From: Nanobdellota archaeon
Lineage (GTDB): Archaea > Nanobdellota > Nanobdellia > Parvarchaeales > Parvarchaeaceae
NCBI GenBank assembly: GCA_021818905.1
Contig: JAKASS010000003.1
Location: 10,445-74,444 of the forward strand
Length of the DNA: 64,000 bases
Direction: 5' to 3'
The notes under the pieces were generated by a model, which ran no database searches, was not told where the DNA came from, and saw nothing but the letters and a program-made list of their open reading frames with translations. Positions 16,597 through 61,504 of the stretch are shown piece by piece (position 1 is the stretch's first letter; the number at the start of each line of letters is the position of its first letter). The position numbers were made by a program, and so were the translations under genes.

Positions 16597-16679
16597 TGGA
16601 CTCGGGGGGATTTGAACCCCCAGTCTTTCCCAATCTGGATCTTTGCCATGGGAACGCGGTGCCGTTGCGCCACGAGCCC
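16597..16679 (-). tRNA. tRNA-Ala(GGC) with an 11-nt insert in the anticodon arm, likely an archaeal intron; CCA is not encoded
   Basis: Cloverleaf folded by hand. Acceptor stem GGGCUCG/CGAGUCC with the G3:U70 Ala identity pair. T arm GGGGG-UUCAAAU-CCCCC. Anticodon stem UUCCC/GGGAA around the loop AUGGCA(A/U). 83 nt total. Confidence 0.65.
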
Positions 16680-33276: not shown

Positions 33277-33874
33277 AGCGTCTGGTTTTTTCCTATCAAG
33301 TGCGGTTACTATAAGTTTAGCGATAATGTTTTTTGATATAATCCATTCAACCTTGATATCCCTGTCAGTATTCATTTTTATAATTCCACTATTCGCAGGC
33401 AGCATAATATTGAGGGCTTTTGCTTGGAAAAGGCTGTACGATGTATCAAGAAAAGTCCTTTATTTTATCACGGCGGCGCTCGTTCTCGTGCTCGGATTTG
33501 CACTGCTGATATGGTTCCTGTTGTGGGTTTCGACACAGACGATATTGTACCCGCTTTCTGATTATGCCGGAATGTCCATAGTGATAGGCATGTCGCTGCT
33601 TTGGGCGGCCTATTCTCTTGCAGAATTTGTTTCTGTATATGGCCTTTTCCAAAATAAAATCTACAATCTATCCAAGATGCTCCTTGTCCCGATAATATTG
33701 ATAGAAGCCTCACTAGTTTTCCTTGCAGGAGACTTCAGTTACGCACTGCCAATAGGCCTTCTGATTCTTGCGGCATCTACGGCGATGATAGGGCTTGGAT
33801 TCCTGTTTGATAATCCTAAAATAAATTCTGTAAACTCAAGGGGACCTACTTCCTCAGGTCGATTATATCCATAG
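33254..33874 (+). CDS. Hypothetical polytopic membrane protein
   Basis: 206 aa with about six TM helices. Confidence 0.45.
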
Positions 33875-34841
33875 CGTCTTCACCAGTGCCTATAAGAGTT
33901 ATCGGGACGTTGATGGAATCTTCCACGGTTTTTAGCCATTTTCTCGCCTCTACCGGCAAATCTTTATATTTTCTTTTTTTGTAAGCATCTTTGAACATGG
34001 CGTCTATTTTTGTTATAGCAACCTGATTCGCCGAATTAACCCTTACTACGTTCCTAGCCAATTCTTTATCAAAGGGGGCAACCCTTCTTTTTCGTCCTGT
34101 CACTGTGCCGTGTTCTTCAAACTCTTTTTTTACAGAATTCTCTTCTACTTCGCCATCCAATGGCCCGCCACCGACCCTAGTTATAAAAGATTTGAATATG
34201 ACAATGACGTTTTCAACGTATCTTGGACCTACGCCGACTTCGCTTAGTACTCCAGAAGAAGTCGTATTTCTGCTTGTGACGTAAGGATATGCACCGTGGT
34301 AGAGACTTATCATGTGTCCTTGCGTACCTTCTGCGATTACTTTTTTGCCTTTCTCTAAAGCGCCCGTGACGATTTCGGGTACATTAGCTAAATATTTAGA
34401 AAGCCCAGGATAAGATTCTGCAAGTTTTAGTTTTCTCAAAACCCTTTTTGCTTCGGCCGTGCCTACGCCCTGCTTTGTACTTCCAACTTTCCCGCTCAAG
34501 AATGGATCGTTTTCTTCTTCTTTCGCCTCTTGATCGGTTATGACCGCGGTATGCGGATCTATTATGACTCTATTTTCAGTACCAGTCTCTTCAATCTCCT
34601 TGAATAGAATCTCTCGTCTTATCAGTGCGCCTGGTGATATGGCCAAAGTAGTTTTCTTATTAACGAAAGCTCCTGGTAGCGTCCTTAACTTGAAAGTCTT
34701 TCCATCAAAAACGACCGTGTGGCCTGCATTCGTACCGCCGGTCCTTACTGCAATAACTGGATCATCTTTCAGGGCCAAGTAGGAAGCTATTTTACCCTTG
34801 CCTTCGTCGCCATAGAAACCGCCGACGAGTATATCTAGCAT
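33846..34841 (-). CDS. purA: Adenylosuccinate synthetase (short archaeal form)
   Basis: GDEGKGK P-loop, GTNAGHTV and the GTP-binding KxD motif. Confidence 0.85.
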
Positions 34842-34921
34842 ATATTTAATCCAAAAATATTATGTTTATCGAAAACATCAACTTTTGTTGCGTCTAGTCT
34901 TTTAGTCATCATAGACAATCA

Positions 34922-35467
34922 CTATAGCTTCGTAGCATCAGAAAGCTTTACCCTCACCCTTTCCGACATATCATTGGTGCTAACATAAGCAAGCACATCG
35001 ATATCTGGGTCATAAAGCTCAACCATATCAAGATCAGTTCGATCCATTATCCTCGCTCCTTTCACCTTCCTTCCGTCTTTTAGAGATTGTTTAAGCGCTG
35101 CGTATTTCTTTGGTTCTAGATAAAAGTCCACATCTCCAACATGATGACGATATGGGTCTGGTCTTCTTATGTAAAGATAAGCGTAAGTCGTTTCTGGCAC
35201 ATCACCACTAGCAGGAATGACTATTGGTTCATATAAGTGGAAGTATTTTTGGTTAAGATTATAAGATGGTTCTGTTAGTGCTTTTCTAAGTTTGATAAGT
35301 GCATCATATTCATTATCGTAGTGGCAAAAAATTCCCATATTCCCTGCGTTTTTAAGATATCGGCCAAATGACTGTTTACAAAGTTTGTGACACTCGAAAT
35401 GAACGTGCTCTATAGCTTTGAACAATTTATCTTTATTAGTTATAGGGCTGAATCTATACAATTTCAT
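34922..35467 (-). CDS. Hypothetical protein
   Basis: 181-aa ORF with no recognizable motif. Confidence 0.4.
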   Translation of the reverse strand: MKLYRFSPITNKDKLFKAIEHVHFECHKLCKQSFGRYLKNAGNMGIFCHYDNEYDALIKLRKALTEPSYNLNQKYFHLYEPIVIPASGDVPETTYAYLYIRRPDPYRHHVGDVDFYLEPKKYAALKQSLKDGRKVKGARIMDRTDLDMVELYDPDIDVLAYVSTNDMSERVRVKLSDATKL

Positions 35468-35613
35468 TTAATCACTTCCTTATTACACTAAATTAGTGCC
35501 ACTACTTCTGATGCGTTGCATCATCATAGAGACAGCTCTAGTCGGAGTCTTGAGAGTTGTTATCACCATACTTAGTTAAACAGAAGGGCCGTTAAATAGG
35601 TTTCCTCGAATGG

Positions 35614-35722
35614 TACGCGTGTGCATAAGTGCTTTATAGAATGGCTGCTTCTGCAAGGATATGACGTCTAATATCGCTAAAATAAAGTCGTATGGTAGTG
35701 GAGGCGACTTTACACAAGCCTG
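35614..35722 (+). repeat. Solo copy of the left end of the IS5-family element (TIR plus about 95 nt of 5' leader), with no transposase
   Basis: About 85-90% identical to 5428-5530 (…gtgcataagtgctttatag…ctgcttctgcaaggatatg.cgtctaatatcgctaaaa…). It lies upstream of the mazE-like gene on the same strand. Confidence 0.6.
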
Positions 35723-35782
35723 GGTGCCTACTTATGAACATTAAGTTTATATAGTGTATTATACATTAACTATATGTAAACT

Positions 35783-36013
35783 ATGGTAAAGGAGATCAGC
35801 ACGATACAGTTAGATAAGTCTGTCATATCGGATTTAAAGAAACTTAAAAGATCGCCCAGGGAGACGTACGTAGAATTGATAAGATACTTGATTACTCTAG
35901 CTAAAAGAGACGACCTAAAGAACCAATACGATGAATTTTTACACAAGACCCAGCAAAAAAAGATGAAAGAATTATGGGACAACAAAGAAGATGAGAAGTG
36001 GGAAAATGTTTGA
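35783..36013 (+). CDS. Putative antitoxin partnered with the MazF-like toxin
   Basis: 76-aa charged protein. Its stop overlaps the toxin start by 23 nt. Confidence 0.5.
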   Translation: MVKEISTIQLDKSVISDLKKLKRSPRETYVELIRYLITLAKRDDLKNQYDEFLHKTQQKKMKELWDNKEDEKWENV

Positions 36014-36320
36014 CCCCGGTGATGTAGTTATAACCGAGGTGCAGTTTACAGATACGTTTGAAATAAAAAGACGCCCCGCACTTGTCCTGTTCGAAGAATT
36101 TGATAATGTAGTGATAGCCGGGATAACCAGTAATACTGGCATGGAAGGAGTCTCTATATCTAAAAAGGACGGTGCTGTCAAGGATAGCGTGATAAAGTTA
36201 AATTATATTTTTACCGTTTCAACAAAAATGATTGAAAGGAAACTTTTCACATTAAACAAAGAGAAAAAGAGATTGGTCTTTCAAGAACTTACAAAACGCT
36301 TGAGCCCGCTTAACAGTTAA
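35991..36320 (+). CDS. mazF: MazF/PemK-family endoribonuclease toxin
   Basis: FDPGDVVITEVQFTDTFEIKRRPALVL... is a PemK-like N-terminal signature. 109 aa. Confidence 0.7.
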   Translation: MRSGKMFDPGDVVITEVQFTDTFEIKRRPALVLFEEFDNVVIAGITSNTGMEGVSISKKDGAVKDSVIKLNYIFTVSTKMIERKLFTLNKEKKRLVFQELTKRLSPLNS

Positions 36321-36327
36321 ATCGCAT

Positions 36328-36372
36328 TCTGTGGAGCAGATTGCCCAAAAATCGCTTTCGGAACTACTGGGA
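36328..36372 (+). repeat. Left copy of a 45-46 nt direct repeat, a candidate att-like boundary
   Basis: tctgtgGagcagattgcccaaaaatcGctttcggaactactggga, compared with the copy at 42705-42750, has 2 mismatches and 1 indel. It is immediately followed by a CTTTCGGA/TCCGAAAG hairpin. Confidence 0.6.
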
Positions 36373-36442
36373 ATCAGTACCTCCGAAAGTGAAAAATAAC
36401 AAACTTCTAACATATAAATAGTATTACCTACATTTAAACAAA

Positions 36443-36712
36443 ATGCAAGGAAAACATAAAAATCATAACTTGGTAAGGTTCGCTTGGCTTCTAATTGGAA
36501 TCGGCGCACTGATAGTTATACTGGATATCATTGGTCCTAGTGGTGGTTGCGCTGTGGGATTGCCGATTTTTCCAATAAATGCGACAAGCACCACAGGTTC
36601 TCAATGTGCGTCTTTAGCGGTAAATTATAATCCATATAATTGGTTTTTAGGTCTTGGGTTTGCGCTCATTATTATTGGTGCTGCAATAGAGATTGTTCTC
36701 TATTACCAATAA
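36443..36712 (+). CDS. Small membrane protein
   Basis: 89 aa with two TM helices. Its stop abuts the end of the IS4-family transposase. Confidence 0.4.
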   Translation: MQGKHKNHNLVRFAWLLIGIGALIVILDIIGPSGGCAVGLPIFPINATSTTGSQCASLAVNYNPYNWFLGLGFALIIIGAAIEIVLYYQ

Positions 36713-36714
36713 AG

Positions 36715-38247
36715 TTATCCGTCTGGATTCTTAGTAGCTAAAAGTCTGATAGAAAACATTCTAGCGGTTATCATCGTCTTAGTCGTCCTTATGCCTAAAA
36801 ATGCCATAATTAGTAGGTCCACCAATATCCAACAGTTGTATAATATTACTGAAAGCATAAAGTAGAAGTATCTTATAATATAGTTTATCGATGTCGTCTT
36901 GCCCCTGAAATTATACTTCTTTACACGATATCCTGTCTCAATCTGCCAACGCCTTCTGTACATATCCGCGATTTTCTGCGCAAAAAGGATGTCCTGCGGA
37001 CCTATGTCGATGTTAGTTGCAAATCCTTGTCTGCCTCGGTCGCCTTCTATGACCGCCAAGTTGAACTTGCAATCTCCCATAACTGCATTTCTTTGTATAA
37101 ATGGCGTGACTCTGGTCTTACTGTTCTTCATTGCATTATTGCTTTCCTTCATCGGCATTATAAACTTTACGTCTAGTTTGTTTAGTCTTCTTATGCACTC
37201 AGACCCTAGAAAACCTCTATCAAGAAGTATTGTACCTATATGGATTCTTTCTTTTGCAAACGACACTAATCTTTCGACTAAATCATTCTAATCGTCTTGT
37301 GGAAAGACTGGCAGGGCGAATAAAGTTAACCTTTGACCATGATTTACTATGTCAATTGTGATGAACTTGAAACACCATTTCGTGCCTCTTTCTGGTTTGG
37401 TGCCGATGATTGCTGGATGTTCGGGATTTCCGTAGAAGAACCAGGGTGTTGCGTCTATTGCTAAATCTAGTTTACGGCCCAGAATCGAGCCGCCTTTCTT
37501 AGCCATTTTGAAGACCATGTCAAACAGATCATAGAATATCCTTTGTATTTCTCCGTAATCGAACTTCTTAAGGTGGTAGAATAGCGTGTCTGCGGATGGC
37601 ATTCTTTTTGACGATGTTTCCGCCAATATCTTTGATCCGCCTTCTGCGAAGTTTTGAGTTGCTGCGATGTTTATAAGCAAACCAAGAAAATCATCTTCTT
37701 TAAAGACGGAGTTTTGCTTAATGTTAAAACTTAGTTTTTGTCTGAGTTTTGTCCTGACTAACCTGAGTAGTTCTTTTTCCTTAACATTCTTGTTTTGTAT
37801 TACGGAGTTCTCTTTGCGCAGTTCCTTTGACTTATTTTCTAAAGAAACGTCATCGAATATGATGTTAAATTTATTTGTAAGTTCTTTTATTATTGCTATA
37901 ACTTGATTAGCTAACTCTAAGATTTCTGGGTTTAGTGTAAAAATAAAGTGTGAAAAATCTCGTCGCATTGGTAAAATTACTTTATCGGCATCTTTGTCGA
38001 AACCAATGTTTATTGCATCTTCAAGATGACCATTTAGATAAACTATCAGTTTTCTCTGCGACTTAATCCCTTTAATTATCATAAAAATGTAAGCTTTGAT
38101 CAGCGAATCGGAAGAATATTTTCGCTTTGAGGATATTTTCGGTAATAAGTCAATTTGTTTTAAAATGTCGGATAACAGAAACATTTTGGATTTGGAACTA
38201 ACAAAAATCGAACGAATTTTACGCATTAACTCGTTATTTTCTTTCAT
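36715..38247 (-). mobile_element. IS4/ISH3-family transposase gene split by a frameshift at about 37266-37288 (pseudogene or programmed frameshift)
   Basis: The N-terminal ORF (37288-38247) carries LAIDATPWFF (first D). The C-terminal ORF (36715-37266) carries LLDRGF (second D) and the RWQIETGYR E-motif. The two frames are adjacent. Confidence 0.65.
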
Positions 38248-38333
38248 ACAAGTGATTTACTTACAAGTCATTCACTTATATTATAAAAACGAAAAATATA
38301 TAAGCTTTTCGCTTGTAAGTTAATAAGTGTGAT

Positions 38334-38591
38334 ATGGTGAAGTATATCCCAAAATGGTTAATAAAACGTCTAAGTAAATTATGGGCAGCGTATAAAGAAA
38401 AGGAATTTACTTTTGAGGAGGCAACAAAGGCGCTGCCTGAAGACGACCCTAGAAACTTAGCTATGGTGCTTTCTGACTTAAATAAAAGTGGGTGGATAGA
38501 AACCAAACAAGATCCAAAAAATAAGAGGAAGACCCTTTACAAAATAAAGCAAGGTTCTATCGTAAATGAGCTTATAAAAATAGAGCTTTAA
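38334..38591 (+). CDS. Small winged-helix-like protein (possible regulator of the downstream helicase-nuclease)
   Basis: 85 aa. It lies 69 nt upstream of the 958-aa gene on the same strand. Confidence 0.4.
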   Translation: MVKYIPKWLIKRLSKLWAAYKEKEFTFEEATKALPEDDPRNLAMVLSDLNKSGWIETKQDPKNKRKTLYKIKQGSIVNELIKIEL

Positions 38592-38660
38592 TTATCGTTT
38601 TAAAGCAGATGAAATTTGAAACTAAAATTAGTATTATATTAGCTTTAACTTAAGTAACTT

Positions 38661-41537
38661 ATGGGTTACTATAGCGATTCAGAATTAATTAGAAAGCTAA
38701 AGGTAAGACAACATAAAAATTATATTTCTACAAAGGAACATAAATTTGAGGGAATTTTATTTAAAAAACGGATCACTAACCCAGACGACTTGCCTGCCGA
38801 AATAAGAAAAATGGATACATTTAATAAAATACGCAATTTTTTCCCGATACAGATTAAAGCATTCGACGCCGGAATTTTAAATCACAGAAATTTAGTACTT
38901 TGCGCACCGACTGGTATGGGAAAAACTCTACCAATAGACATTTCAGCTATTAAGACCGTTGTTGATGGTCATAAAAAAGTAATATTTTTAGAACCTTATC
39001 TCGCAATAACGAACCAAAAGGTAGGAACGTTAGCTAATGAAACTTTAAATATAATTCCTGGACAATTTACTGGAGAAACGAATGATAATCCTTCTAGATC
39101 AAATATAATTTACGCCACCGCTGAAAAACTGTTTCTAGCGATACAAAATAGAGAAATCTGGTTAAATGATGTTGGTTTACTAGTTGTTGATGAATGTGAC
39201 ATTCTGAATGATATTAACCGGGGCGCAATTCTAGAAGAAGTAATTAGTTGCTTTATAACTCTATACAAAGATGCACAGATTGTGATGTTGTCGGCGACAT
39301 TATCTAATGGAGAAGATTTGGCCAAATGGATTGGGGGAACATACATAAGTGATAATACGCGTAATGTTAAGATAAAATACGAACTTTATCCGACATTTGA
39401 TTTCACTGTAGAAGAATTAAAAAAGATTGAAGAGCAAGAAAATCAAATCTTTATCACATTAGAAAATCCGATAAAACCGCTAGAAAATAAAAACCCGTCT
39501 GAAAATGAGATATTAGTTGCCACCTCCACTAGAAAGGAGGCAAAAAAACTATGTTGGAAATTACTAAAATCTAGAGGTACTCACTCATCTACTCAAGACC
39601 TTGGTAGATATTTAAGTGAATTAGGAAAAAAAATAAAAAGGGAAGCAAAGTATGGGATGGATAAGATTTCTAAGATGGTGTCTATAACCGTTCATGCTGA
39701 AGTTGCAGTTCATAACGCGGGTTTAACAAGAAAGCAAAGAACTTTAATAGAAAGCGCATTCGAAGAAAAACTTATAAAAATATTAGTATGTACCCCAACT
39801 CTAAATAGAGGAATTAATTTGCAGCTTAAAAAACTTATTTTATACAATGGAATAAAAAAAGCGGAGGGATTGATGACTGTATCAGAATTCCATCAGCTAT
39901 GTGGGCGTGTTGGGAGACCTGGTCAAGAAAACGTGGGTGAGGTTATAATATGTTGCAATAGCTTTGAGGAGATGGTCGTTGCGAAGGAGAAAATAATGGG
40001 ACGATATGAACTCGTTGAATCCAAATTAAAACCGCACATCGCAAGTTTTATTATTCTTCTTGTAGGTGCGGGATACTCTCTCAAGATAATAAGCCAAATT
40101 TTAATGAATACTCTATTCGCTTCTATGAATTTTGAGTCACCCATAGTTAAAGATTTTAATGAAGCGGCTTTGCTGTCTACTATAAAAAGTGCGCCAACAA
40201 TTTTCGATTTAATAAATGAAACGCCAAAATTAACAAAATTCGGGGAACTATGTTTTAGGTATAGTGGCTACGAACTAAAGGATATAAAAGAACTATGTAA
40301 GTCAATAACTAAGAAAGCAAAGGATGAGACACTGAATAAAAGTGATTTAATTGAGCTAATAAACACTTTGATTTCTAAAAGAAAAAGTCAACATGCGGAA
40401 TGGACTTTGCTTCTAAATGCTTGGTTAAGTGGTGATAAAAATGTTCCTAAGCCTCTAGAAACTGAAAAAACGGATTTTGGAACGAAAGACTTTAAAGAGT
40501 TTAAAAAACGATCTAAAAATATAAGTAATCTAATTTGTTCACTTATAGAATATAATGACATTGATAAATCTTCAATTTTTTGGATATTCGGATTACCAAA
40601 TTGCATTGAATTCGGGCTGGACCCTATTAAATACGGAGAGTTAGCCGCGATATCGAATAATAGAAAGCAGGCATGTTTACTTACAGAGGGTTTTGATGGC
40701 AGCATAAAAATAGCGAGCGAAAAAACGCTTAATGAATACAGAGAGATATTAGGACATAACTCATTTGCATCTTCTATGGGTATACTTAAAAAATTAAATA
40801 AAATATTAGGAAAACCGGAGCGAGTGAGCGTCGGCGAAGCAGTTAATTTTATTCATTGTCCGTTGTCGTTTTTATTAGACTATTATTACAGCTTAAAGAA
40901 TATGGAAATGCTAGAGAAAGATATACAAGAAAAAACAGAAATTGGGGGAAATGTACATAAATATATACATAAGTTCTGTGAATATTGGAATCACGTAGGA
41001 ACGATAGTAAAGGCAAAAGGGCTTACATTAGACTTAATTGGAAGAGATTCTCCTAATAATATTGACGAAATAACCTCTGCTTTTAATAATTTCTGTAATT
41101 TTTTACTATCAAATAATTTTAAAGCTGCGAACTCCTCTGAAAAAGTTATAGAAAGTAAAAAATTGGAAATTCAAGGCATATTAGATTTAGTGCTTTTGGA
41201 TTATAATAATTATTTAACATTAATAGAAATAAAATCTGGCGACTTTCAGGAATACAGATATGAACAATGGGACCAAAATCAAATTTATTTGTATTATCTT
41301 ATTTTAAGAGACTGCGACATAGATATAAAAGATGCCTTTGTTTTATATTTAAAACCTCTAACTGCGTCATATGTTGATTTAAGCGAAGAAAAATTACGAA
41401 AAATTTCTTCTTATATAGGAGCGATGCGTAATTTAATGAGTCGCGTGGACGCACTTAAAGATGAGAATCTAAGAGGACTTTGTACTTGCAGAAACTCTTC
41501 TCATAAATGCGTATGCAATCAACTTTTTGATGAATAA
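38661..41537 (+). CDS. Ski2/Hel308-like SF2 helicase fused to a C-terminal Cas4/RecB-type Fe-S PD-(D/E)xK nuclease
   Basis: Helicase motifs: Q motif FPIQ, I APTGMGKT (aa 82-89), II DECD (177-180), III SAT (211-213), IVa HNAGL (351-355), VI QLCGRVGRPG (412-421). Nuclease motifs: CPLSF (Cys733), D842/D847...E856-I-K858, Q-x3-Y (872-878), and a terminal C-x-C-x6-C-x-C (941-952). Confidence 0.7.
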   Translation: MGYYSDSELIRKLKVRQHKNYISTKEHKFEGILFKKRITNPDDLPAEIRKMDTFNKIRNFFPIQIKAFDAGILNHRNLVLCAPTGMGKTLPIDISAIKTVVDGHKKVIFLEPYLAITNQKVGTLANETLNIIPGQFTGETNDNPSRSNIIYATAEKLFLAIQNREIWLNDVGLLVVDECDILNDINRGAILEEVISCFITLYKDAQIVMLSATLSNGEDLAKWIGGTYISDNTRNVKIKYELYPTFDFTVEELKKIEEQENQIFITLENPIKPLENKNPSENEILVATSTRKEAKKLCWKLLKSRGTHSSTQDLGRYLSELGKKIKREAKYGMDKISKMVSITVHAEVAVHNAGLTRKQRTLIESAFEEKLIKILVCTPTLNRGINLQLKKLILYNGIKKAEGLMTVSEFHQLCGRVGRPGQENVGEVIICCNSFEEMVVAKEKIMGRYELVESKLKPHIASFIILLVGAGYSLKIISQILMNTLFASMNFESPIVKDFNEAALLSTIKSAPTIFDLINETPKLTKFGELCFRYSGYELKDIKELCKSITKKAKDETLNKSDLIELINTLISKRKSQHAEWTLLLNAWLSGDKNVPKPLETEKTDFGTKDFKEFKKRSKNISNLICSLIEYNDIDKSSIFWIFGLPNCIEFGLDPIKYGELAAISNNRKQACLLTEGFDGSIKIASEKTLNEYREILGHNSFASSMGILKKLNKILGKPERVSVGEAVNFIHCPLSFLLDYYYSLKNMEMLEKDIQEKTEIGGNVHKYIHKFCEYWNHVGTIVKAKGLTLDLIGRDSPNNIDEITSAFNNFCNFLLSNNFKAANSSEKVIESKKLEIQGILDLVLLDYNNYLTLIEIKSGDFQEYRYEQWDQNQIYLYYLILRDCDIDIKDAFVLYLKPLTASYVDLSEEKLRKISSYIGAMRNLMSRVDALKDENLRGLCTCRNSSHKCVCNQLFDE

Positions 41538-41587
41538 ATCTTATATTATTTAATTTTAATGCCAACGCTCTCTGGTCCAATTATTAT

Positions 41588-41617
41588 CTGAGCACAGAAT
41601 TAACACATGGTGCTCAG
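41588..41617. terminator. Hairpin between convergent genes (candidate bidirectional terminator)
   Basis: CTGAGCAC-14 nt-GTGCTCAG with T-rich flanks, between the helicase-nuclease (+) and the multi-HTH gene (-). Confidence 0.35.
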
Positions 41618-42582
41618 TTTTCATAGGTTCTCCTATTTTTTAGCGCCATTTGTATTTCGCTTATTTTTCGCTTACTAAAACCATTAGGTTGTTTGATATC
41701 CAAGAAAGCTTTTATAGCAACTGCTTCTTTTCCTGGAAGACAGTAAATTGCCACCTTGCCGATTATTACTGATTTAATGAGTGCATTTTTCCCTATTCGC
41801 TTGAATATCATTATATTTTTGCGGTTAGATATTACATACCCTCTGTTTATCAGATTGCACAGGATTTGAAAATAAACTCCGCCTATCCTACTGTGTTTTC
41901 CTTTTAAGTCAGACGTCCACCTGACTATTGTCGGATAGCTCACTTTTAGCATGTTAGATAGTTCAGTCTTCTGAACACCGCTCTTTATCAGCCGTCTTAC
42001 CTTTTTCTTAAACTTGTCTGGATACCTTTTGAGTTCTGGCGCGCGGTTTAGCCACTTGTTAAGGGTTTTTAGGTTTATTCCTAGCTCCGCTGCGGTCTTA
42101 AGTCTGGACTTTCCTGAAGCGACTAAATCTAGCGCTTTTTTTCTAAATTCGTCCGTATAGATTACTTGCTTGTTTGATATCGGTATGTTCCATCTGTTTA
42201 TAGTGCTTATCGCTATTCCAAGACGCCCAGCCGTTTCGGTCCTGCTGAGCCCAGAAGAAAGCATTTCTACGGCTCTTTGTTTTACGCTTTCTGGTAACCT
42301 GTGATAGGTTGAAATGCCATAAAGCCATTTTGCAAGAGTTCCGTACGGGATGCCAAGTTCCGCTGATATTTTGTATCTCGACTTGCCTTCTAAAGCAAGG
42401 GCTTTAGCTTTCTCTTTTACCTCTTGCGGATAAATTCGTGCGTTAATACTTGGTATCTGCCAAGTACTTAACGTGCCTAGGGGTACACCTAATTGCAGAG
42501 CAGTAGCATATTTTGTCATTCCTGACGTTATAAGTTCCTTTGCTTTGCTTCTGATATCGTCGGGATACTTGCTTCCTTTCAT
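41614..42582 (-). CDS. Protein with five tandem about 45-aa helix-turn-helix repeats and a C-terminal domain of unknown function
   Basis: The repeats follow the pattern x.K.KA.EL..SG.S....A..LGI...TL..W (transposase-type HTH). No DDE, tyrosine-recombinase or serine-recombinase catalytic motifs were seen. The gene is next to the att-like repeat and tRNA-Leu. Confidence 0.5.
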   Translation of the reverse strand: MKGSKYPDDIRSKAKELITSGMTKYATALQLGVPLGTLSTWQIPSINARIYPQEVKEKAKALALEGKSRYKISAELGIPYGTLAKWLYGISTYHRLPESVKQRAVEMLSSGLSRTETAGRLGIAISTINRWNIPISNKQVIYTDEFRKKALDLVASGKSRLKTAAELGINLKTLNKWLNRAPELKRYPDKFKKKVRRLIKSGVQKTELSNMLKVSYPTIVRWTSDLKGKHSRIGGVYFQILCNLINRGYVISNRKNIMIFKRIGKNALIKSVIIGKVAIYCLPGKEAVAIKAFLDIKQPNGFSKRKISEIQMALKNRRTYEN

Positions 42583-42704
42583 AGTATTTCATGAAAACGC
42601 ATATTAAAACCGTCTTCGGTCGTTGCCCAAAACAGGCTATTTTTAGAGGGAGCTTTTTGCGAACCGATTTTCAGAAATGGGCACTGGCGGGCAATCAGTA
42701 ACGT

Positions 42705-42750
42705 TCTGTGAAGCAGATTGCCCAAAAATCACTTTCGGAACTACTGGGGA
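42705..42750 (+). repeat. Right copy of the 45-46 nt direct repeat, abutting the 3' end of tRNA-Leu
   Basis: tctgtgAagcagattgcccaaaaatcActttcggaactactgggga. It ends 1 nt before the tRNA discriminator base. Confidence 0.6.
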
Positions 42751-42751
42751 A

Positions 42752-42836
42752 TGCAGGGAGAGGGATTTGAACCCTCGAAGGCCTAAGCCACTAGCCCCTG
42801 AAGCTAGCACGTTTGACCGGGCTTCGCTATCCCTGC
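42752..42836 (-). tRNA. tRNA-Leu(CAG), class II with a long variable arm; CCA is not encoded
   Basis: Cloverleaf folded by hand. Acceptor stem GCAGGGA/UCCCUGC. Anticodon stem CUAGC/GCUAG around the loop UUCAGGG. T arm GAGGG-UUCAAAU-CCCUC. 85 nt. Confidence 0.75.
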
Positions 42837-42880
42837 GCCGTATTATATCTTTACCTCTATGCGGATTAAGAAGATGATTT

Positions 42881-43279
42881 TTATTTGTACCCTAACGTAT
42901 TTTTTACAGTTATTACGAACTCTTCGGCGTTCTTCAAAGTGTTTTCTACGGCTACTTTATCAGGTTCTATTGTCACATCATATGTACTAGCTTGTCTTAT
43001 AGCCAATGCGCGATTCAAATATCTAGAAAATTTCTTTTCTAATTTTCCCGTTTTTATGTAATAGTTACTGAAAGAGGCTACAACGCCTCGGTGCGTTTTT
43101 GGAGGCCTTATTCTTGCGCTTATTAGCGCTGCGGTGGCGGAATAGAACATTGCATAATAAGCCAGGCTTGCGGCCGGTCTAAGCAGTGAGTTCTCAAAAT
43201 TAAGATAGGACTCCTCGAGTGTCTTATCCGCTAGTTTTACGTAGCTTTCCAGTAAGCTTTTCGAATACACTTCTTCCAT
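42881..43279 (-). CDS. HEPN-domain protein (toxin half of a HEPN-MNT pair)
   Basis: 132-aa alpha-helical protein whose reading frame overlaps the upstream MNT gene. Confidence 0.55.
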   Translation of the reverse strand: MEEVYSKSLLESYVKLADKTLEESYLNFENSLLRPAASLAYYAMFYSATAALISARIRPPKTHRGVVASFSNYYIKTGKLEKKFSRYLNRALAIRQASTYDVTIEPDKVAVENTLKNAEEFVITVKNTLGYK

Positions 43280-43721
43280 AAAGTCCTATTGCGTCTTCAC
43301 TAACATTTCTTATAAACGGTGTGCCTAGCATCACCGATTTCCTCAAAGTTTCTGGCGTTACAAAAAATAAAGATATAAAAAACGCGAAATCGTTCTCCAA
43401 TTCGAAGTCTACCAAGGTGTCATATGCCCTAGACGTGAAATTTAGGTCATTAGCATATTTAGTTAAGACCATGATGTCTATGTCGCTGCTTCTTTTGGCA
43501 TGGCCTCTCGAAACAGAGCCATAGAGCACTATTGCGTCTATCTTTTTGCCAAATTTCAAAGATAGTCGCCCCGCAAATTCTTGCGCTACCCTTCTATATT
43601 CTAAGCTGATGGTCTTTGCCATATTTTTCATTGGGTGCTTAAACAATTTAAGCTTTTTAGATTTTAGAAGGCGCATTCTAATTGCTGTGAAGCCTAAGCC
43701 ACTGGCCCCTGAAGCTAGCAC
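43224..43721 (-). CDS. Minimal nucleotidyltransferase (MNT antitoxin-like)
   Basis: GSVSRGHAKRSSDIDI matches the GS-x9-13-D-x-D motif of pol-beta-superfamily NTases. The true start is probably an internal Met (MKNMAK). Confidence 0.65.
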   Translation of the reverse strand: MLASGASGLGFTAIRMRLLKSKKLKLFKHPMKNMAKTISLEYRRVAQEFAGRLSLKFGKKIDAIVLYGSVSRGHAKRSSDIDIMVLTKYANDLNFTSRAYDTLVDFELENDFAFFISLFFVTPETLRKSVMLGTPFIRNVSEDAIGLYGRSVFEKLTGKLRKTSG

Positions 43722-43747
43722 ATTTGACCGGGCTTCGCTATCCCTGC
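43692..43747 (-). repeat. Degenerate duplicate of the 5' half of tRNA-Leu, in direct orientation to the intact gene
   Basis: 56 nt with 2 mismatches relative to 42781-42836 (tRNA positions 1 to about 56). The mismatches break the anticodon and D stems. Confidence 0.7.
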
Positions 43748-43804
43748 ATGTATCTAAATAGGTTGTAATGAATTTATTTAAAGCCTCTGCGGATAAAATA
43801 TACC

Positions 43805-44224
43805 ATGAAAGTTTTGTTTATCTGCAAATACAATGCTGGCAGGAGCAGGATGGCGGAAGCATTTTTCAATGAATTTTCAAAGGAAAATACTGCCCTGAGT
43901 CGGGGGATAGAGCCCTATCCTGATTCGCCATCGGCTGAGCGTGGACTTAAAGGGACGATAGAAGTGATGAAGGAGGTCGGCATAAAAATCCCATATAAAC
44001 CCGGAAGTCCAGTTACAAAAGAAGACGTCGAAGAAGCCAATCTAGTGGTAGTCTTATTGGACGAGAAACAACGGAATATCCTGCCCGAGTACATAACAAA
44101 TTCTCCAAAGACGAGATACGACGGCGTAGTCGATTCCGACTCGAGGAGCGCAGATTTCCTAGACCAGCATAGGGCAAACAGGGATAAAATCCAAAAAATC
44201 GTCTTAAACCTGCTTAAACAATAG
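43805..44224 (+). CDS. Low-molecular-weight phosphotyrosine phosphatase / ArsC-family protein
   Basis: CX5R(S) P-loop VLFICKYNAGRSRMAEAFF. 139 aa. The downstream ArsC cysteines are absent. Confidence 0.6.
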   Translation: MKVLFICKYNAGRSRMAEAFFNEFSKENTALSRGIEPYPDSPSAERGLKGTIEVMKEVGIKIPYKPGSPVTKEDVEEANLVVVLLDEKQRNILPEYITNSPKTRYDGVVDSDSRSADFLDQHRANRDKIQKIVLNLLKQ

Positions 44225-44303
44225 AACGGACACGCACCAATATTTCTTTCTAGAAGACTTTTTCGTCTGGGAAAGTCGTGAAGGGGGGTACTTTGCCAGA
44301 TAT

Positions 44304-44320
44304 TACGCTTGTGCATAACT
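44304..44320 (+). repeat. Short solo copy of the IS5-element terminal repeat
   Basis: tacgcttgtgcataact, about 110 nt upstream of the RHH gene. Confidence 0.45.
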
Positions 44321-44432
44321 CCATTAAATAAGCCTAACTTCGTCTGACTTGCTTTGGACTTTCTTTCCTGCTGCGCCCAGCCGGAGAAGAAAAAAGTATT
44401 TATACTATGATTATTCTTAATTATCTATAATT

Positions 44433-48310: not shown

Positions 48311-48357
48311 ATTGCTGTTTAATTACATATTATATATAAGGCTTAGGTAAAATTGTA

Positions 48358-48460
48358 GGCGTGTGCATAACTCGGCCAGTAAACCTTTATTCTAAGCCAA
48401 ACTATGACTGATATTGCGTCTAATACCGCTAAAAAGGGATCGATAAGAAGTGGAAGCGGG
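48358..48460 (+). repeat. Diverged solo copy of the IS5-element left end
   Basis: aggcgtgtgcataact...gatattgcgtctaataccgctaaaaag...agtggaagcgggg. It lies about 250 nt upstream of EF-2. Confidence 0.5.
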
Positions 48461-48704: not shown

Positions 48705-50888
48705 ATGCCCGAAAAGGAATCTCTTACTGAGAAGGTAGTTAGGCTGATGACGCAGCAACGACGGATAAGAAACATCGGCGTCATCGCTCATGTCGACCAT
48801 GGGAAAACTACGACCTGCGACAGCTTGCTTGCGGGATGCGGCATGCTTTCCGAAGAAAAGGCTGGAAAGCAGCTTTACTTAGACTCGGAAAAAGTAGAGC
48901 AGGAAAGGCAGATGACCGTAAAATCCTCCAACGTAAACATGGTCTACGAGCTAAAGGAAGGGGACGAATATCTTATAAACCTCATTGACACGCCCGGCCA
49001 CGTGGATTTTGGCGGACACGTCACCCGCGCGGTCAGGGCTATCGATGGCGCGATAGTAGTCATGGATTCGGTAGAGGGCGTGATGCCGCAGACGGAAATG
49101 GTCCTGAAACAGGCGTTAAAAGACAAGGTAAAACCGATCTTATACATAAACAAGATAGACAGGTTGATCACGGAATTGAGGCAGACCCCCGACCAGATGC
49201 AAAAGCACCTCATAAAATTGATACTTCAGATAAACTCTTTCATAAAAGACCTCGCCCCTGCGGAGATGCGGGAAAAATGGCAGGTAAACGTCCAGGATAA
49301 CACGGTCGCCTTCGGCGCATCAAGAGAGAATTGGGCTCTTTCCTTCAAAAGGATGAAAGAGACCGGTCTTTCATTCAAAGACATATACGACGCCTACACC
49401 GCAAATGACAAGGAAAAGATAAAAGAGCTTTCTAAGAAGACCCCCGTGCACAAGGTCCTTTTGGATATGGTGATAGAACACCTGCCGAGTCCACTCGACG
49501 CCCAGAGATACAGGATCCCGATAATATGGCATGGGGACATGGAAAGCGAAGTCGGCAAGGGACTTGTCAACTGCGATGTAAACGGGCAGCTTATGCTATC
49601 CGTCACCAACATAGAGATAGACCCGCAAGCGGGAGAGGTCGCCGTCGGCAGGATATTCTCTGGAAAAGTAAACAAGGGCCAGGACGTGTTTTTGGTGAAC
49701 AACAAGCAAGTGAACAAGATACAAAATATATACATCTGGAAAGGCCCTCAAAAGTTCCAAGTAGACACCGCAAACGCGGGCAACCAAATAGGGATGGCAG
49801 GGTTAAAAAACATAGTCGCAGGCGAGACGCTTTCTTCAAGCCAGGACGCGACTCCGTTTGAGCCAGTAAGGCACATATTGCAGCCAGTGATGGTGAAAGC
49901 CATAGAGACAAAAAATCCAAAAGACCTGCCAAAATTAGTGCAGGCGCTTCATGAGCTAAGCGTTTACGACATAACGTTAAAAGTCTCGATAAACCACGAG
50001 ACTGGAGAGAACCTGATCGCCGGGCTCGGGACATTGCATCTGGAGATCGTGGAAGACAAGCTTAGGCGTACTTATGGGATAGACATAGTAAGTTCGCAAC
50101 CGATAGTAGTCTACAAGGAGAGCATCTCGACGAGAGGGGCCGTGGTCGAAGGCAAGTCCCCGAACAAACACAACCGATTCTACTTATACGTAGAGCCGAT
50201 CAGCCAGGAAGTCTCGACCGCTATGGAAGAGACTGGGATGCAGACTGGAAAAATAAAGAGCCTTACTCCAGAACAACTTAACGCTTTGATGGCCGCGGGG
50301 ATGTCAAGAGACGAAGCAAAAAGGATAGCCGCGGTCTATGGCAATAATATCTTCATAGACGGGACGAAGGGGGTCATACACATCGGCGAGATAATGGAGA
50401 TGTGCATAGAAGCTTTCAATGACGTAATGAAGACCGGGCCACAGGCAAAAGAAGAGGTCTGGGGGGTAAAAGCCGTGCTTACCGATACGATATTGCACGA
50501 AGATGCGATACACCGCGGGCCCGCACAGGTCATACCTGCGGTAAGGGACGCTATAAAGGACGCATTTATGACGGCTGGCCCCGTCCTATTGGAGCCTATA
50601 CAGCTGATAAGGATAGACATGCCCATGGCTTTCCTAAGCAACGTAAGCCCGCTCATACAATCAAAGAGGGGGATGATAAACGACGTAAAAGAGGACGGCG
50701 ACAAGGTGGTCATCCTCGCAGACCTGCCAGTGGCTTCGTCTTTCGATTTTACGAATGAACTGAGATCCGGCACGGAAGGAAGAGGTTCCTGGTCTTTGTC
50801 GGGAGAAAAATTCAGAAAAGTGCCAAAGGATCTTTATCCCGGCGTGTTAAAGCAGATAAGGGAAAGAAAAGGATTGCCCCCGCTTTGA
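48705..50888 (+). CDS. fusA: Translation elongation factor aEF-2
   Basis: IRNIGVIAHVDHGKTT, DTPGHVDF, and domains II-V. 727 aa. Confidence 0.9.
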   Translation: MPEKESLTEKVVRLMTQQRRIRNIGVIAHVDHGKTTTCDSLLAGCGMLSEEKAGKQLYLDSEKVEQERQMTVKSSNVNMVYELKEGDEYLINLIDTPGHVDFGGHVTRAVRAIDGAIVVMDSVEGVMPQTEMVLKQALKDKVKPILYINKIDRLITELRQTPDQMQKHLIKLILQINSFIKDLAPAEMREKWQVNVQDNTVAFGASRENWALSFKRMKETGLSFKDIYDAYTANDKEKIKELSKKTPVHKVLLDMVIEHLPSPLDAQRYRIPIIWHGDMESEVGKGLVNCDVNGQLMLSVTNIEIDPQAGEVAVGRIFSGKVNKGQDVFLVNNKQVNKIQNIYIWKGPQKFQVDTANAGNQIGMAGLKNIVAGETLSSSQDATPFEPVRHILQPVMVKAIETKNPKDLPKLVQALHELSVYDITLKVSINHETGENLIAGLGTLHLEIVEDKLRRTYGIDIVSSQPIVVYKESISTRGAVVEGKSPNKHNRFYLYVEPISQEVSTAMEETGMQTGKIKSLTPEQLNALMAAGMSRDEAKRIAAVYGNNIFIDGTKGVIHIGEIMEMCIEAFNDVMKTGPQAKEEVWGVKAVLTDTILHEDAIHRGPAQVIPAVRDAIKDAFMTAGPVLLEPIQLIRIDMPMAFLSNVSPLIQSKRGMINDVKEDGDKVVILADLPVASSFDFTNELRSGTEGRGSWSLSGEKFRKVPKDLYPGVLKQIRERKGLPPL

Positions 50889-50931: not shown

Positions 50932-51333
50932 TCAACTTTCAATCACAGACGCTAAAAGGTTTATCAACTTTTTAACTATCGGCAGCGTCTCTTCCACCTC
51001 CGCTTTGAAGTTATTTTTTATCGGAGAAAATCCATAGCCAGCCATATTCCGTGATGCCAGCAATTCGCTGTATGTCCTTATTATCTCGGGCAGATTTGCT
51101 TTCAACGCAGAAAACTTTTTTTTATTATTTACCAAGTCTTTGAATTGATCTATTACGTCGTGCTTCTTTGGAAAATTTACCTCCTCTTCCAGTAAAACGG
51201 CCTTCACGCTTATCTCCAACGCCATTTCAAGAGAGTACAAAGCTATGCTAAAATTACGACCGTTCGCCTCGAGTTCTGCGGATAAGAGCCAATCATTCGC
51301 CATCCGCATCGCTTCTTTAGCTACGTTTTCCAT
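50932..51333 (-). CDS. HEPN-domain protein (pair 2)
   Basis: 133 aa and alpha-helical. Paralogous to 60498-60923 (EMALEISVKAVLL versus EMSLELAIKAVML). Overlaps the MNT gene by 13 nt. Confidence 0.55.
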   Translation of the reverse strand: MENVAKEAMRMANDWLLSAELEANGRNFSIALYSLEMALEISVKAVLLEEEVNFPKKHDVIDQFKDLVNNKKKFSALKANLPEIIRTYSELLASRNMAGYGFSPIKNNFKAEVEETLPIVKKLINLLASVIES

Positions 51334-52043
51334 GATAACATTTCGCCTTTTTCTGAAAATCGCCTCTCGTGTTTTATCCTTCGCATCGACATCAAAAAAT
51401 CGGCAAGTGTTTCATTGCAGTCATAGAGTATCAATCCATAGTCCAGAAGATCCAGATATATCGGCCTGAATGTCTTTAAATCTTCGATGGCCAATAGCAA
51501 AACGCTTATCCTCAAGTGGAATCCTCGCTTCACGAAAGCGTCCCGCAGAGGTTCTATTTGCTGTTGTATTTTTGAAAGTCTGCTACGTAAATTTCTGGTC
51601 GCGTCTTCCGCTATCACGAGAATGTCTATATCGCTGTATTCATTGAACGTCCCCTTTATTACGGAACCGAAAAGCATGATGCCGACTACGTCGCGTTCCT
51701 TTGAAGCGGACTTGACAAAAGTCTCTATATAATTTCGTATGTCGGCTGGTAAGGCGATAAAGCGCAGCTGTTTACCCATAAAGTCTTCTATGATCTCGTT
51801 AAACGTGATCTTTCTGCCCGCCGCCTTCGAAAACTCTTCTTTCAGCGCCTTGATCTTAGAATAAGCCGTTGCGCGCAGCAATAGCTGTTTATTCTTTTCC
51901 ATATTAATTATATATATAATTTTATATATAAACTTTACCATGTTAAATTCTTTAAGCGATAAAGGCCGCCTGTTCGCACAGGCTAAATTATTAAAATGAC
52001 GGGCGCCGCAAGTGTATATGGCATGTCCGTTCTGCGACGACAC
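51321..52043 (-). CDS. Minimal nucleotidyltransferase (pair 2) with an N-terminal extension
   Basis: GIMLFGSVIKGTFNEYSDIDILVIA. Paralogous to 60911-61504. Confidence 0.65.
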   Translation of the reverse strand: MSSQNGHAIYTCGARHFNNLACANRRPLSLKEFNMVKFIYKIIYIINMEKNKQLLLRATAYSKIKALKEEFSKAAGRKITFNEIIEDFMGKQLRFIALPADIRNYIETFVKSASKERDVVGIMLFGSVIKGTFNEYSDIDILVIAEDATRNLRSRLSKIQQQIEPLRDAFVKRGFHLRISVLLLAIEDLKTFRPIYLDLLDYGLILYDCNETLADFLMSMRRIKHERRFSEKGEMLSWKT

Positions 52044-59413: not shown

Positions 59414-59499
59414 TGCGCCGACCGGGAATCGGACCCGGATTAATGAATTTTCCTCATCGCTGTGGGAATCCATTGTTCTGACCGTTAAACCATCGGCGC
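59414..59499 (-). tRNA. tRNA, probably Gly(CCC), with a 14-nt insert in the anticodon arm likely to be an archaeal intron; CCA is not encoded
   Basis: Cloverleaf folded by hand. Acceptor stem GCGCCGA/UCGGCGC. D stem GUUU/GAAC. Anticodon stem AUGGA/UUCAU around UUCCCA. T arm CCGGG-UCCGAUU-CCCGG. The T-loop sequence is atypical. Confidence 0.5.
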
Positions 59500-60497: not shown

Positions 60498-60923
60498 TTA
60501 TCGTTTATTCATAAAGCTTACGGCGCGCTCGCATAGTCCTATCGAATTTACCGCCTTATTATGATACTTTTTAGAAAAAGCTTTGAAGTCTTCCTTGCTC
60601 ACGTCACTTTCAAAGTTATAACCGCTTGCGGCCTTAAGCTCCAGAAGCTCGTTGAATGTCGTTTCTATTTCTTCTAAAGATTCGTTTAATTCTTTCGGTA
60701 GCTTATTTTTATTCGCGATCGCTGTCTGTCTGAATAAAGTACCTATCTCATGCTTTTTGGGAAAATTCTTCCCTAGGGCTAGCATCACCGCTTTTATAGC
60801 GAGTTCCAGCGACATTTCCAGATCGTATAAGTTTTTGGCGTAATTGTCGTTGTCCCTATTCAACGTAGCACTCTTGAGCCATTCCTTTGCACGTTCTATC
60901 GCTGCTTTACTTACACCTTCCAT
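60498..60923 (-). CDS. HEPN-domain protein (pair 3)
   Basis: 141 aa. Paralogous to 50932-51333. Overlaps its MNT partner by 13 nt. Confidence 0.55.
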   Translation of the reverse strand: MEGVSKAAIERAKEWLKSATLNRDNDNYAKNLYDLEMSLELAIKAVMLALGKNFPKKHEIGTLFRQTAIANKNKLPKELNESLEEIETTFNELLELKAASGYNFESDVSKEDFKAFSKKYHNKAVNSIGLCERAVSFMNKR

Positions 60924-61504
60924 TCCAAAACCTCCCCAGACTCTGTAAACTTTCTTGAATATTTTATTTTTTCTATATTGTCAATAAAGTCTGTCAGGAC
61001 AGCGCCGCGTTCAAACAATGGCACCCCATAATCTACAAGATCGAAGTATATCGGCTCTAATTTATCCAGAGAGCCGATTTTAAGTATTAACGGGTTTATG
61101 CGAAGGTATAATCCTCTGTCTTCCAGCAATCTCTTTTTTTCTTCTTTAAGGGAATATATGGCCTTATTCACGGCCGTGAAGGCGTTCGGAAAACTATCAT
61201 TTGCGATTATCGCTATGTCAATGTCGCTATACTTAGAGAAATTGCCTTTGGCGACCGATCCAAAGAGCATGATGCCGAGAACGTTTTTATTGAGCGAAAT
61301 CTTCGATACAAAAAGGGATATGTAGTTTTTTATTCCAATGTCCAGATGCAATAAACGTAGGTCTCTTGTTAGCAGCTTCTTTATTATATCGCCAAAGGTA
61401 AGTTTTTTGCCGGTCTCCTTCGATATATCCACTCTCGATTGCTTGAGTCTCGCGTATACGTCCTCGTCGAGCATCACTGGTTTTCTTTTTTCCATAGTAT
61501 ACAA
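60911..61504 (-). CDS. Minimal nucleotidyltransferase (pair 3)
   Basis: GIMLFGSVAKGNFSKYSDIDIAIIA. Confidence 0.65.
   Translation of the reverse strand: MYTMEKRKPVMLDEDVYARLKQSRVDISKETGKKLTFGDIIKKLLTRDLRLLHLDIGIKNYISLFVSKISLNKNVLGIMLFGSVAKGNFSKYSDIDIAIIANDSFPNAFTAVNKAIYSLKEEKKRLLEDRGLYLRINPLILKIGSLDKLEPIYFDLVDYGVPLFERGAVLTDFIDNIEKIKYSRKFTESGEVLEWKV

Follow-up and report, generated by a model that had tools for sequence, protein, structure and literature searches.

A HEPN-MNT toxin-antitoxin pair inserted into the 5' half of a tRNA-Leu gene in a Nanobdellota archaeon

Integration on the 5' side of a tRNA gene is rare but known (PMC6563490), and for the pTN3-like integrases of Thermococcales the attB is the 5' half of tRNA-Leu, with 41 bp of identity and a minimal site at positions 2-44, so that integration separates the restored tRNA from its promoter (PMC5495485, PMC8371274). 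In vitro, purified IntpTN3 alone excises and reinserts an 849-bp circle located between two direct tRNA-Leu repeats (PMC5495485, PMC8371274). Almost the same geometry is found in a 64,000-nucleotide stretch from a Nanobdellota archaeon of the Parvarchaeaceae (assembly GCA_021818905.1, contig JAKASS010000003.1, positions 10,445 to 74,444 of the forward strand; the whole stretch is referred to as the window, and positions are counted from its first letter). Here, a two-gene cassette encoding an MNT antitoxin-type nucleotidyltransferase and a HEPN toxin-type protein lies between an intact tRNA-Leu(CAG) gene and a partial copy of the 5' part of that gene. The insertion is real, and the tRNA gene that received it has been used repeatedly; the 5'-half mode is rare but known, the host group is new, and the cargo is unusually small and lacks an integrase.

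As in the pTN3/TKV4-like (SSV-type) elements, the target is tRNA-Leu, the att corresponds to the 5' half including the anticodon arm (positions 1-56 in the window), and the insert, placed upstream of the restored gene, parts that gene from its original promoter. Unlike those elements, the insert (0.86 kb) carries only a toxin-antitoxin (TA) pair, has neither an integrase gene nor split integrase halves at its ends, and resides not in Thermococcales but in a DPANN host with relatives among Parvarchaeota and 'Nanoarchaeota' MAGs. A preliminary description of the locus had suggested a search for integrative elements that use the tRNA-Leu 5' half as their att site, and the pTN3-like integrases (PMC8371274, PMC5495485) are such a group. 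The window thereby extends to DPANN a mode of integration earlier described as unique to these Thermococcales integrases.

Two other kinds of mobile unit invite comparison. Bounds of the attL and attR type and the absence of integration and transfer genes are shared with the cis-mobilizable elements (CIMEs) of Firmicutes (PMC5704250; ICEberg 2.0, PMC6323972), which, however, are bacterial, are defined as decay products of integrative and conjugative or integrative and mobilizable elements, and usually measure several kb. For the window cassette, an origin by decay is partly contradicted by a sister cassette (below), which is equally minimal; no larger relative of the window cassette was found. 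The TA cassettes of chromosomal integrons are small, self-promoted units that are joined to a recombination site and depend for their movement on a recombinase whose gene lies elsewhere. The window cassette is likewise small, self-promoted and placed at a recombination site, but it lacks an attC hairpin, IntI and a cassette array, and its recombination site is tRNA-derived.

Few archaeal genes move horizontally as readily as TA pairs, yet to our knowledge the movement of a bare two-gene pair is rarely visible. The combination of tRNA-derived att-like repeats, an empty site and a sister cassette that is polymorphic between strains makes mini-elements mobilised in trans directly testable.

Insertion of the cassette into tRNA-Leu(CAG)

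The intact tRNA-Leu(CAG) gene (attR-like; 42752-42836, minus strand) is found by both ARAGORN and Rfam (52.2 bits). Its positions 1-56 (42781-42836, minus strand) recur at 43692-43747 on the same strand, where 54 of 56 nucleotides are identical against a chance expectation of 0 (100 shuffles), while the resident T arm and acceptor 3' strand occupy 42752-42780 (minus strand). The copies are in direct orientation with the partial one upstream, 855 bp between them and 911 bp from start to start; a 56-nt match with two mismatches, lying about 850 bp upstream of the intact gene, had already been reported in the preliminary description and is borne out by these measurements. The partial copy (attL-like) comprises the acceptor 5' strand, the D arm, the anticodon arm and most of the variable arm and ends before the T arm; it is a displaced and inactive 5' part that yields no tRNA call with ARAGORN, nor with Rfam at E ≤ 1. 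A decayed T arm behind it was also considered and dropped, the next 22 nt being, by eye, not convincingly T-arm-like.

Both mismatches had been described as stem-breaking, which holds for one of them. In the Rfam alignment, U44→C converts the A32:U44 pair of the anticodon stem to A.C and breaks the stem, whereas C26→U merely changes a G12:C pair of the D stem to a G.U wobble, with pairing kept. Both substitutions are derived, C26 and a paired 32:44 being present in the full copy and in all 11 related loci examined (see below), and they may stem from a diverged attP (with crossover within positions 1-25), which is indistinguishable from decay after the insertion.

Outside the repeat, the flanks of the two copies are unrelated, with local alignments at chance level, and the repeat is limited to tRNA sequence. 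Although the partial copy is absent from all the relatives, this rules out a tandem duplication that also took in non-tRNA flanking sequence, the alternative that the preliminary description had named. An assembly artefact that duplicated part of the tRNA would be in keeping with a metagenome-assembled contig and with the short contigs that break near the tRNA, but it deserves almost no credence, as the junctions are recovered in three independent assemblies (Logan L002/L003, equivalent to window 42802-44370; ENA L006, 41945-43506; L001, 43638-46621). The Logan contigs, which derive from two runs, extend, at 99.8-100% identity, from a point within the full tRNA across HEPN, MNT and the partial copy into the neighbouring phosphatase gene, and the ENA contig covers the other side of the insertion.

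The ancestral state is apparent from related genomes. A scan of species-representative genomes with the D-arm-to-anticodon part of tRNA-Leu(CAG) yielded 11 loci, every one of which has a single tRNA-Leu(CAG), no partial copy, and no HEPN or MNT relative nearby. One of them (L011, Parvarchaeota JOPF222) represents the empty site: a gene for a low-molecular-weight phosphotyrosine phosphatase (LMW-PTP), divergently transcribed from the tRNA, is followed by a 57-nt spacer, an intact tRNA-Leu, 83 nt, and the adenylosuccinate synthetase gene, and the junctions coincide with the repeat boundaries. The tRNA of L011 and the full tRNA of the window are identical at 84 of 85 positions. Both ancestral neighbours are retained in the window, the upstream LMW-PTP at 43805-44224 (plus strand; PF01451; 82% amino acid identity to L011) and the downstream adenylosuccinate synthetase at 33846-34841 (minus strand; 91%); PF00709 was found in the window and at the loci of two relatives.

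The 57-nt spacer between the partial copy and LMW-PTP (43748-43804) is 82.5% identical to the spacer upstream of the L011 tRNA, including the TATA box TTTAAATA of the native tRNA promoter (43775-43782, minus strand), which is positioned at -35 to -28 from the first base of the partial copy. A TATA box is found at a similar distance, roughly 25-40 nt upstream, in most of the relatives and at the window tRNA that starts at 59499. In contrast, the sequence upstream of the full tRNA (42837-42880) is unrelated to the native spacer save for a few bases. Because the native spacer and TATA box adjoin it, the partial copy reads as the ancestral 5' part at its original position, still equipped with the native promoter, whereas the full gene retains the ancestral T arm, 3' end and trailer. 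By this comparison the ancestral gene was opened after about position 56, and positions 1-56 were duplicated, which is what conservative recombination with a circle bearing tRNA positions 1-56 would be predicted to yield. The preliminary description had proposed an att-type duplication of the tRNA 5' half flanking inserted DNA and an alignment of the copies and their flanks with related genomes; that alignment gives an empty site, a repeat confined to the tRNA and unrelated flanks, in support of the proposal. Direct tRNA-derived repeats bounding the insert and an intact tRNA restored at one end are both present.

As the two copies differ at 3.6% of positions and third codon positions of the window and L011 are only 64% identical, the duplication is much younger than the split from L011.

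The well-placed promoter of the partial copy would also suit a working 5' half of a split tRNA, or a regulatory tRNA fragment, and split tRNA genes do exist in some archaea, including Nanoarchaeum. An intact gene lies only 855 bp away, however, a derived change breaks the anticodon stem, neither a complementary leader nor an orphan T arm was found in the window, and the partial copy is missing from 11 of 11 relatives, all of which makes a function of this kind highly improbable.

The MNT-HEPN cassette and its sister at tRNA-Leu(UAG)

As the preliminary description had stated, a HEPN/nucleotidyltransferase module is all that separates the two tRNA copies: within the 855 bp, Pfam identifies the MNT gene (132 aa; 43224-43622, minus strand; PF18765/PF01909; PADLOC PDC-S09/PDC-M05A) and the HEPN gene (132 aa; 42881-43279, minus strand; PF05168, 1.6e-14), and nothing else. 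On the minus strand the order is partial copy, MNT, HEPN and full tRNA, so that the gene pair is co-oriented with the tRNA; MNT comes first and its 3' end overlaps the HEPN gene by 56 nt. The MNT start codon was placed by alignment with the MNT of the sister cassette (L019, 73% identity). Between the genes and the repeats there remain a 5' non-coding end of 69 nt (43623-43691, minus strand), which aligns with the upstream regions of the L019-type and L111-type cassettes (below), and a 3' non-coding end of 44 nt (42837-42880, minus strand; read from the sequence), now the immediate upstream region of the working tRNA. The edges at the tRNA repeat read ...ATAATACGGC on the HEPN side and TTCACAGCAATT... 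on the MNT side. A conserved promoter-like element, TCTAAAAAGCTTAAATT, is situated in the 5' end (box at 43645-43652, minus strand), about 21 nt before the MNT ATG. The first 22 nt of this end, directly after the partial copy, have no other or complementary copy in the window.

The catalytic-type motifs of both proteins are intact (GSx10DxD of MNT as GSVSRGHAKRSSDID; Rx4H of HEPN as RPPKTH), and the pair resembles known HEPN-MNT systems (UPF0332/PF05168 with PF01909) in these motifs, in the MNT gene lying upstream and overlapping HEPN, and in the size of about 130 aa for each protein. Among solved structures the nearest are AF0298 (UPF0332) for HEPN and also a HEPN-nucleotidyltransferase complex. 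Unlike the studied type VII model HepT-MntA, the window pair falls in the UPF0332 branch, with AF0298 closest, and not in the DUF86 HepT branch. Judged by motifs, order and co-orientation it is a HEPN-MNT toxin-antitoxin pair, with the action of HEPN as a toxic RNase and its neutralisation by MNT through AMPylation being putative. A linkage of HEPN-MNT pairs to tRNA-derived repeats has no report in the searchable literature.

The nearest homologues of the two proteins are P0012 for HEPN (77% identity in the alignment) and P0022 for MNT (73-74% amino acid identity), which occur together on at least 17 contigs. There, the sister pair lies behind tRNA-Leu(UAG), with gene order and orientation as in the window, and is itself followed by an exact repeat of the T arm and 3' end of that tRNA, 24 nt long and extendable to about 29 nt; the distance from the tRNA's own copy to the downstream one is 843 bp, compared with 911 bp in the window. 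The two cassettes align from end to end at about 72% nucleotide identity and have in common the promoter-like TCTAAAAAGYTTAAATT about 21 nt before the MNT ATG. Neither of them encodes a recombinase. The tRNA fragments associated with the two cassettes (positions 1-56/60 and 58-85) meet at the junction of variable arm and T stem.

The arrangement of the sister cassette (L019 type), an intact tRNA followed by the insert and by 24-29 nt that repeat the tRNA's T arm and 3' end, is that of the classical tRNA 3'-end (T-loop) integration sites, as far as these are described where Williams 2002 is cited (PMC6563490, PMC8371274). The window cassette differs from that scheme in using the other end of the tRNA, and both cassettes differ from it in having no integrase.

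An empty site is available for the sister cassette as well. In L110 the tRNA is directly followed by the downstream gene, and this strain is 99.77% identical to the occupied L019 over the 5,967 nt up to the tRNA end and 99.71% identical to the occupied L018 over 6,575 nt from the T arm onward. With occupied and empty sites at about 99.7% identity, the 843-bp sister unit has, on this comparison, been acquired or lost among nearly identical strains, with its repeats as the exact boundaries.

MNT shows a dN/dS of about 0.05 relative to the L019 cassette, with pN of 0.13-0.14 for the pair (HEPN 0.13) and synonymous sites saturated, so that both cassette lineages are old, functional and under purifying selection. 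A third lineage (L111; 53-59% amino acid identity) shares the promoter motif and is located between the prefoldin and ftsY genes, with no tRNA and no repeat at the locus. Beyond these, a scan of JGI metagenomes, used as a background set only, returned HEPN relatives that are all distant (≤43% identity); among 80 such loci a tRNA lies within 3 kb in 2 and a tRNA-Leu in none. The window pair is a member of a recurrent tRNA-Leu-associated cassette family, and the linkage to tRNA-Leu is specific to the two closest cassette lineages.

Several isolated features of the cassettes and their relatives are recorded here. In the window, a 15-nt inverted repeat with 87% complementarity (43590-43604 and 43657-43671) flanks the MNT start codon and promoter and may be an operator for autoregulation. 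The tRNA-Leu(CAG) at 447-531 of L026 is a chimera, with the upstream sequence and positions 1-46 identical to L016, and positions 47-85, the cassette and the downstream sequence matching the tRNA-Leu(UAG) locus of L019/L110; it carries an A7.C66 mismatch, may be either a real recombinant between tRNA-Leu genes or an assembly chimera, and is not relied on. In L118 (622-927), found in one JGI sample, the sister HEPN is shortened to 101 aa beside an intact MNT, which looks like toxin decay. On an unrelated JGI contig (L107, 838-1605), a tRNA-Pro lies 80 nt upstream of a distant MNT-HEPN pair whose HEPN is truncated, and in L106 a 23-nt GC-rich repeat brackets a tRNA and an MNT-HEPN pair.

Mode of integration

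Established are the insertion relative to an empty site, the repeat confined to the tRNA, the native promoter next to the partial copy, TA genes that are intact and under selection, and the tRNA-derived repeat and strain-level presence or absence of the sister cassette; from these we infer a recombinase, a circular intermediate, mobilisation in trans and co-transcription with the tRNA. The reading that we prefer, with a probability of roughly 0.6, is att-type recombination into the tRNA-Leu 5' half by a recombinase supplied in trans, the cassette being an integrase-less mini-element. A trans-supplied integrase is favoured because the cassette is without a recombinase. A circular DNA of about 0.9 kb, consisting of the MNT-HEPN pair and its own copy of tRNA-Leu positions 1-56, would have recombined with the resident tRNA-Leu(CAG) in Campbell fashion, leaving the old 5' part at the native promoter. 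The product would read, in order, promoter, the dead attL-like segment 1-56, MNT, HEPN, the working attR-like tRNA composed of segments 1-56 and 57-85, and the native trailer. By analogy with the pTN3-like integrases, the catalyst would most likely be a tyrosine integrase acting in trans on the tRNA-Leu 5' half, and the cassette would then behave as an att-flanked, CIME-like mini-element without an integrase of its own.

Insertion in this manner separates an essential tRNA from its own promoter. Because the stretch between HEPN and the working tRNA (42837-42880) has no TATA box in the canonical place and no T-run terminator, the full tRNA is likely co-transcribed with the MNT-HEPN cassette; the reconstituted tRNA would probably be read through from the old tRNA promoter, from the cassette promoter, or from both.

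Several observations weigh against mobilisation by an integrase in trans. No integrase was found in the cassette, the island or 20 further open reading frames (ORFs) of the window, none was among the top 25 families listed in a pooled scan of 59 window ORFs, and none was evident near tRNA-Leu in the 11 relatives, again among the top 25 families listed. Neither an excised circle nor an attP junction came to light, and IMG/VR yielded no tRNA-Leu 5' half, cassette promoter, attP-like junction or HEPN relative. Furthermore, cassettes of the window type are known from one genome lineage only, and the sister cassette uses the opposite end of its tRNA, so that a recombinase common to both is not required.

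The same product could arise by homologous recombination over 56 nt. Entry without a dedicated recombinase, through such an exchange with a looped-out circle or through microhomology or template-switch repair in which the target became duplicated, agrees with the failure to find an integrase, with the ability of 56-nt direct repeats to support loop-out and re-entry, and with the left junction, where 1 nt is deleted and 3 nt (TTC) may represent microhomology. It is nevertheless improbable, since the sister repeat is only 24-29 nt long and fits a classical T-loop-to-3'-end integrase site, since the duplication in the window affects the very segment on which pTN3-type integrases act (PMC5495485), and since 56 nt far exceeds transposase-type target duplications, terminal inverted repeats being absent. 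A transposon or miniature inverted-repeat element with target-site duplication was rejected altogether: neither the window nor the sister cassette has terminal inverted repeats, and the duplications measure 56 nt and 24-29 nt.

The main rival is a remnant model, in which a larger integrase-bearing, plasmid- or virus-like element, possibly with a 'suicidal' integrase of the SSV/pTN3 type whose gene is split on integration, entered the tRNA-Leu 5' half and was later whittled down by deletions to the addictive TA pair and two att copies. TA pairs resist loss, no recombinase is encoded between the repeats, and the neighbouring 6.3-kb insert (below) is also without an integrase and has a broken transposase. 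Integration of the pTN3 type interrupts the integrase gene, leaving the element trapped (PMC5495485, PMC8371274), and CIMEs arise by decay of this kind in bacteria (PMC5704250). We nonetheless consider such an origin rather unlikely. The 44-nt and 69-nt non-coding ends cannot accommodate an integrase fragment, and no integrase domain of the kind that a split (suicidal) integrase would leave was found in them. The sister lineage has the same two-gene content at near-equal size (843 versus 911 bp) in another tRNA-Leu, and is present or absent between strains that are about 99.7% identical; because the sister cassette is equally minimal at a different tRNA-Leu, independent decay to the same unit is unlikely.

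Extending the trans-mobilised mini-element to the whole group leads to a more tentative proposal, which we hold at somewhat less than even odds: that the cassette family consists of 0.85-kb MNT-HEPN units, each with a promoter, two genes, a tRNA-Leu-derived att and no recombinase, which would be the smallest integrative elements of DPANN archaea, hopping between the genes of tRNA-Leu isoacceptors by means of integrases supplied in trans and carrying either the 5' or the 3' part of the tRNA, the 5' version taking over tRNA transcription. If so, the cell would depend on the cassette twice, through the toxin and through the supply of tRNA-Leu(CAG), and the long-assumed stand-alone mobility of TA pairs would acquire a concrete mechanism.

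Further inserts at the tRNA and other features of the window

The 3' side of the same tRNA carries 7.8 kb of extra DNA relative to L011, in the form of two further inserts, so that a single tRNA gene has gathered defence and TA cargo at both ends. The larger one is a 6.3-kb insert of low GC content (36378-42703; 31-35% GC versus about 42%), absent from L011 and bounded by a 51-nt direct repeat. The right copy of this repeat (42704-42755) consists of the last ~4 nt of the tRNA and the 3' trailer, and the left copy (36327-36377) differs from it by two substitutions and two single-base indels. The insert encodes a HamB-like DEAD helicase fused to a Cas4-like PD-(D/E)XK nuclease (958 aa; 38661-41537), a protein with several helix-turn-helix domains (322 aa; 41614-42582) and a DDE transposase split into ORFs of 319 and 183 aa (37288-38247 and 36715-37266); no integrase is present among its genes. 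The third insert (1.4 kb; 34879-36326), likewise absent from L011, comprises a MazE-like gene (35783-36013), the MazF gene (35991-36320) and a third gene whose 181-aa product has no known function, and no repeat bounding this segment was found.

A 16-nt trailer, CAGTAGTTCCGAAAGT, follows tRNA-Leu(CAG) in identical form in the window (42732-42747), in L009 (5398-5413) and in L014 (3476-3491), three genomes that otherwise differ in their flanks; it may serve as a conserved signal for processing or be related to att. Since these 16 nt, with which the trailer begins, are shared with L009 and L014 behind tRNA-Leu, the right copy of the 51-nt repeat is the native one. A resemblance of the 51-nt repeat to the 3' flank of L011 was hinted at by MAFFT and failed confirmation by local alignment, and a tRNA remnant behind the left copy was not significant.

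With the 6.3-kb defence insert and the MazEF insert on its 3' side, the tRNA fits the repeatedly used hotspot envisaged in the preliminary description. The notion that the scar of the MNT-HEPN pair is an older one finds no support: its 56-nt repeat, with 3.6% divergence, and the 51-nt repeat of the 6.3-kb insert have diverged to a similar extent, and both are far younger than the host split (spacer 82.5% identical, third codon positions 64%). In 9 of the 11 relatives (L007-L017) an EF-2 gene is found within the 8-kb tRNA-Leu(CAG) locus, accompanied in several by a diphthamide synthase gene; the EF-2 gene of the window is 5 kb away (48705-50888), beyond sulfate-assimilation and sulfatase genes, and its displacement indicates that the upstream side of the tRNA is also plastic.

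Two more HEPN-MNT pairs are encoded on the minus strand (50932-52043 and 60498-61504), giving three pairs in 64 kb; the MNT genes of these two share a 70-nt stretch with 70% identity (51622-51691 and 61215-61284). A 92-nt repeat with 84% identity (5428-5519 and 35614-35705) corresponds to the 5' end of an insertion sequence whose DDE transposase is encoded at 5512-6462, and a remnant copy of it is located inside the MazEF insert. The first part of this repeat, ACGC(G/T)TGTGCATAA, recurs upstream of two other genes (44296-44326 and 48351-48370) and may be a promoter or operator motif. Finally, there are two further tRNA genes on the minus strand: one at 16597-16679, with anticodon CAU and an intron-like 14-nt insert, is found by Rfam and missed by ARAGORN, and for one at 59414-59499 ARAGORN gives 'tRNA-???' and an anticodon of 4 bases.

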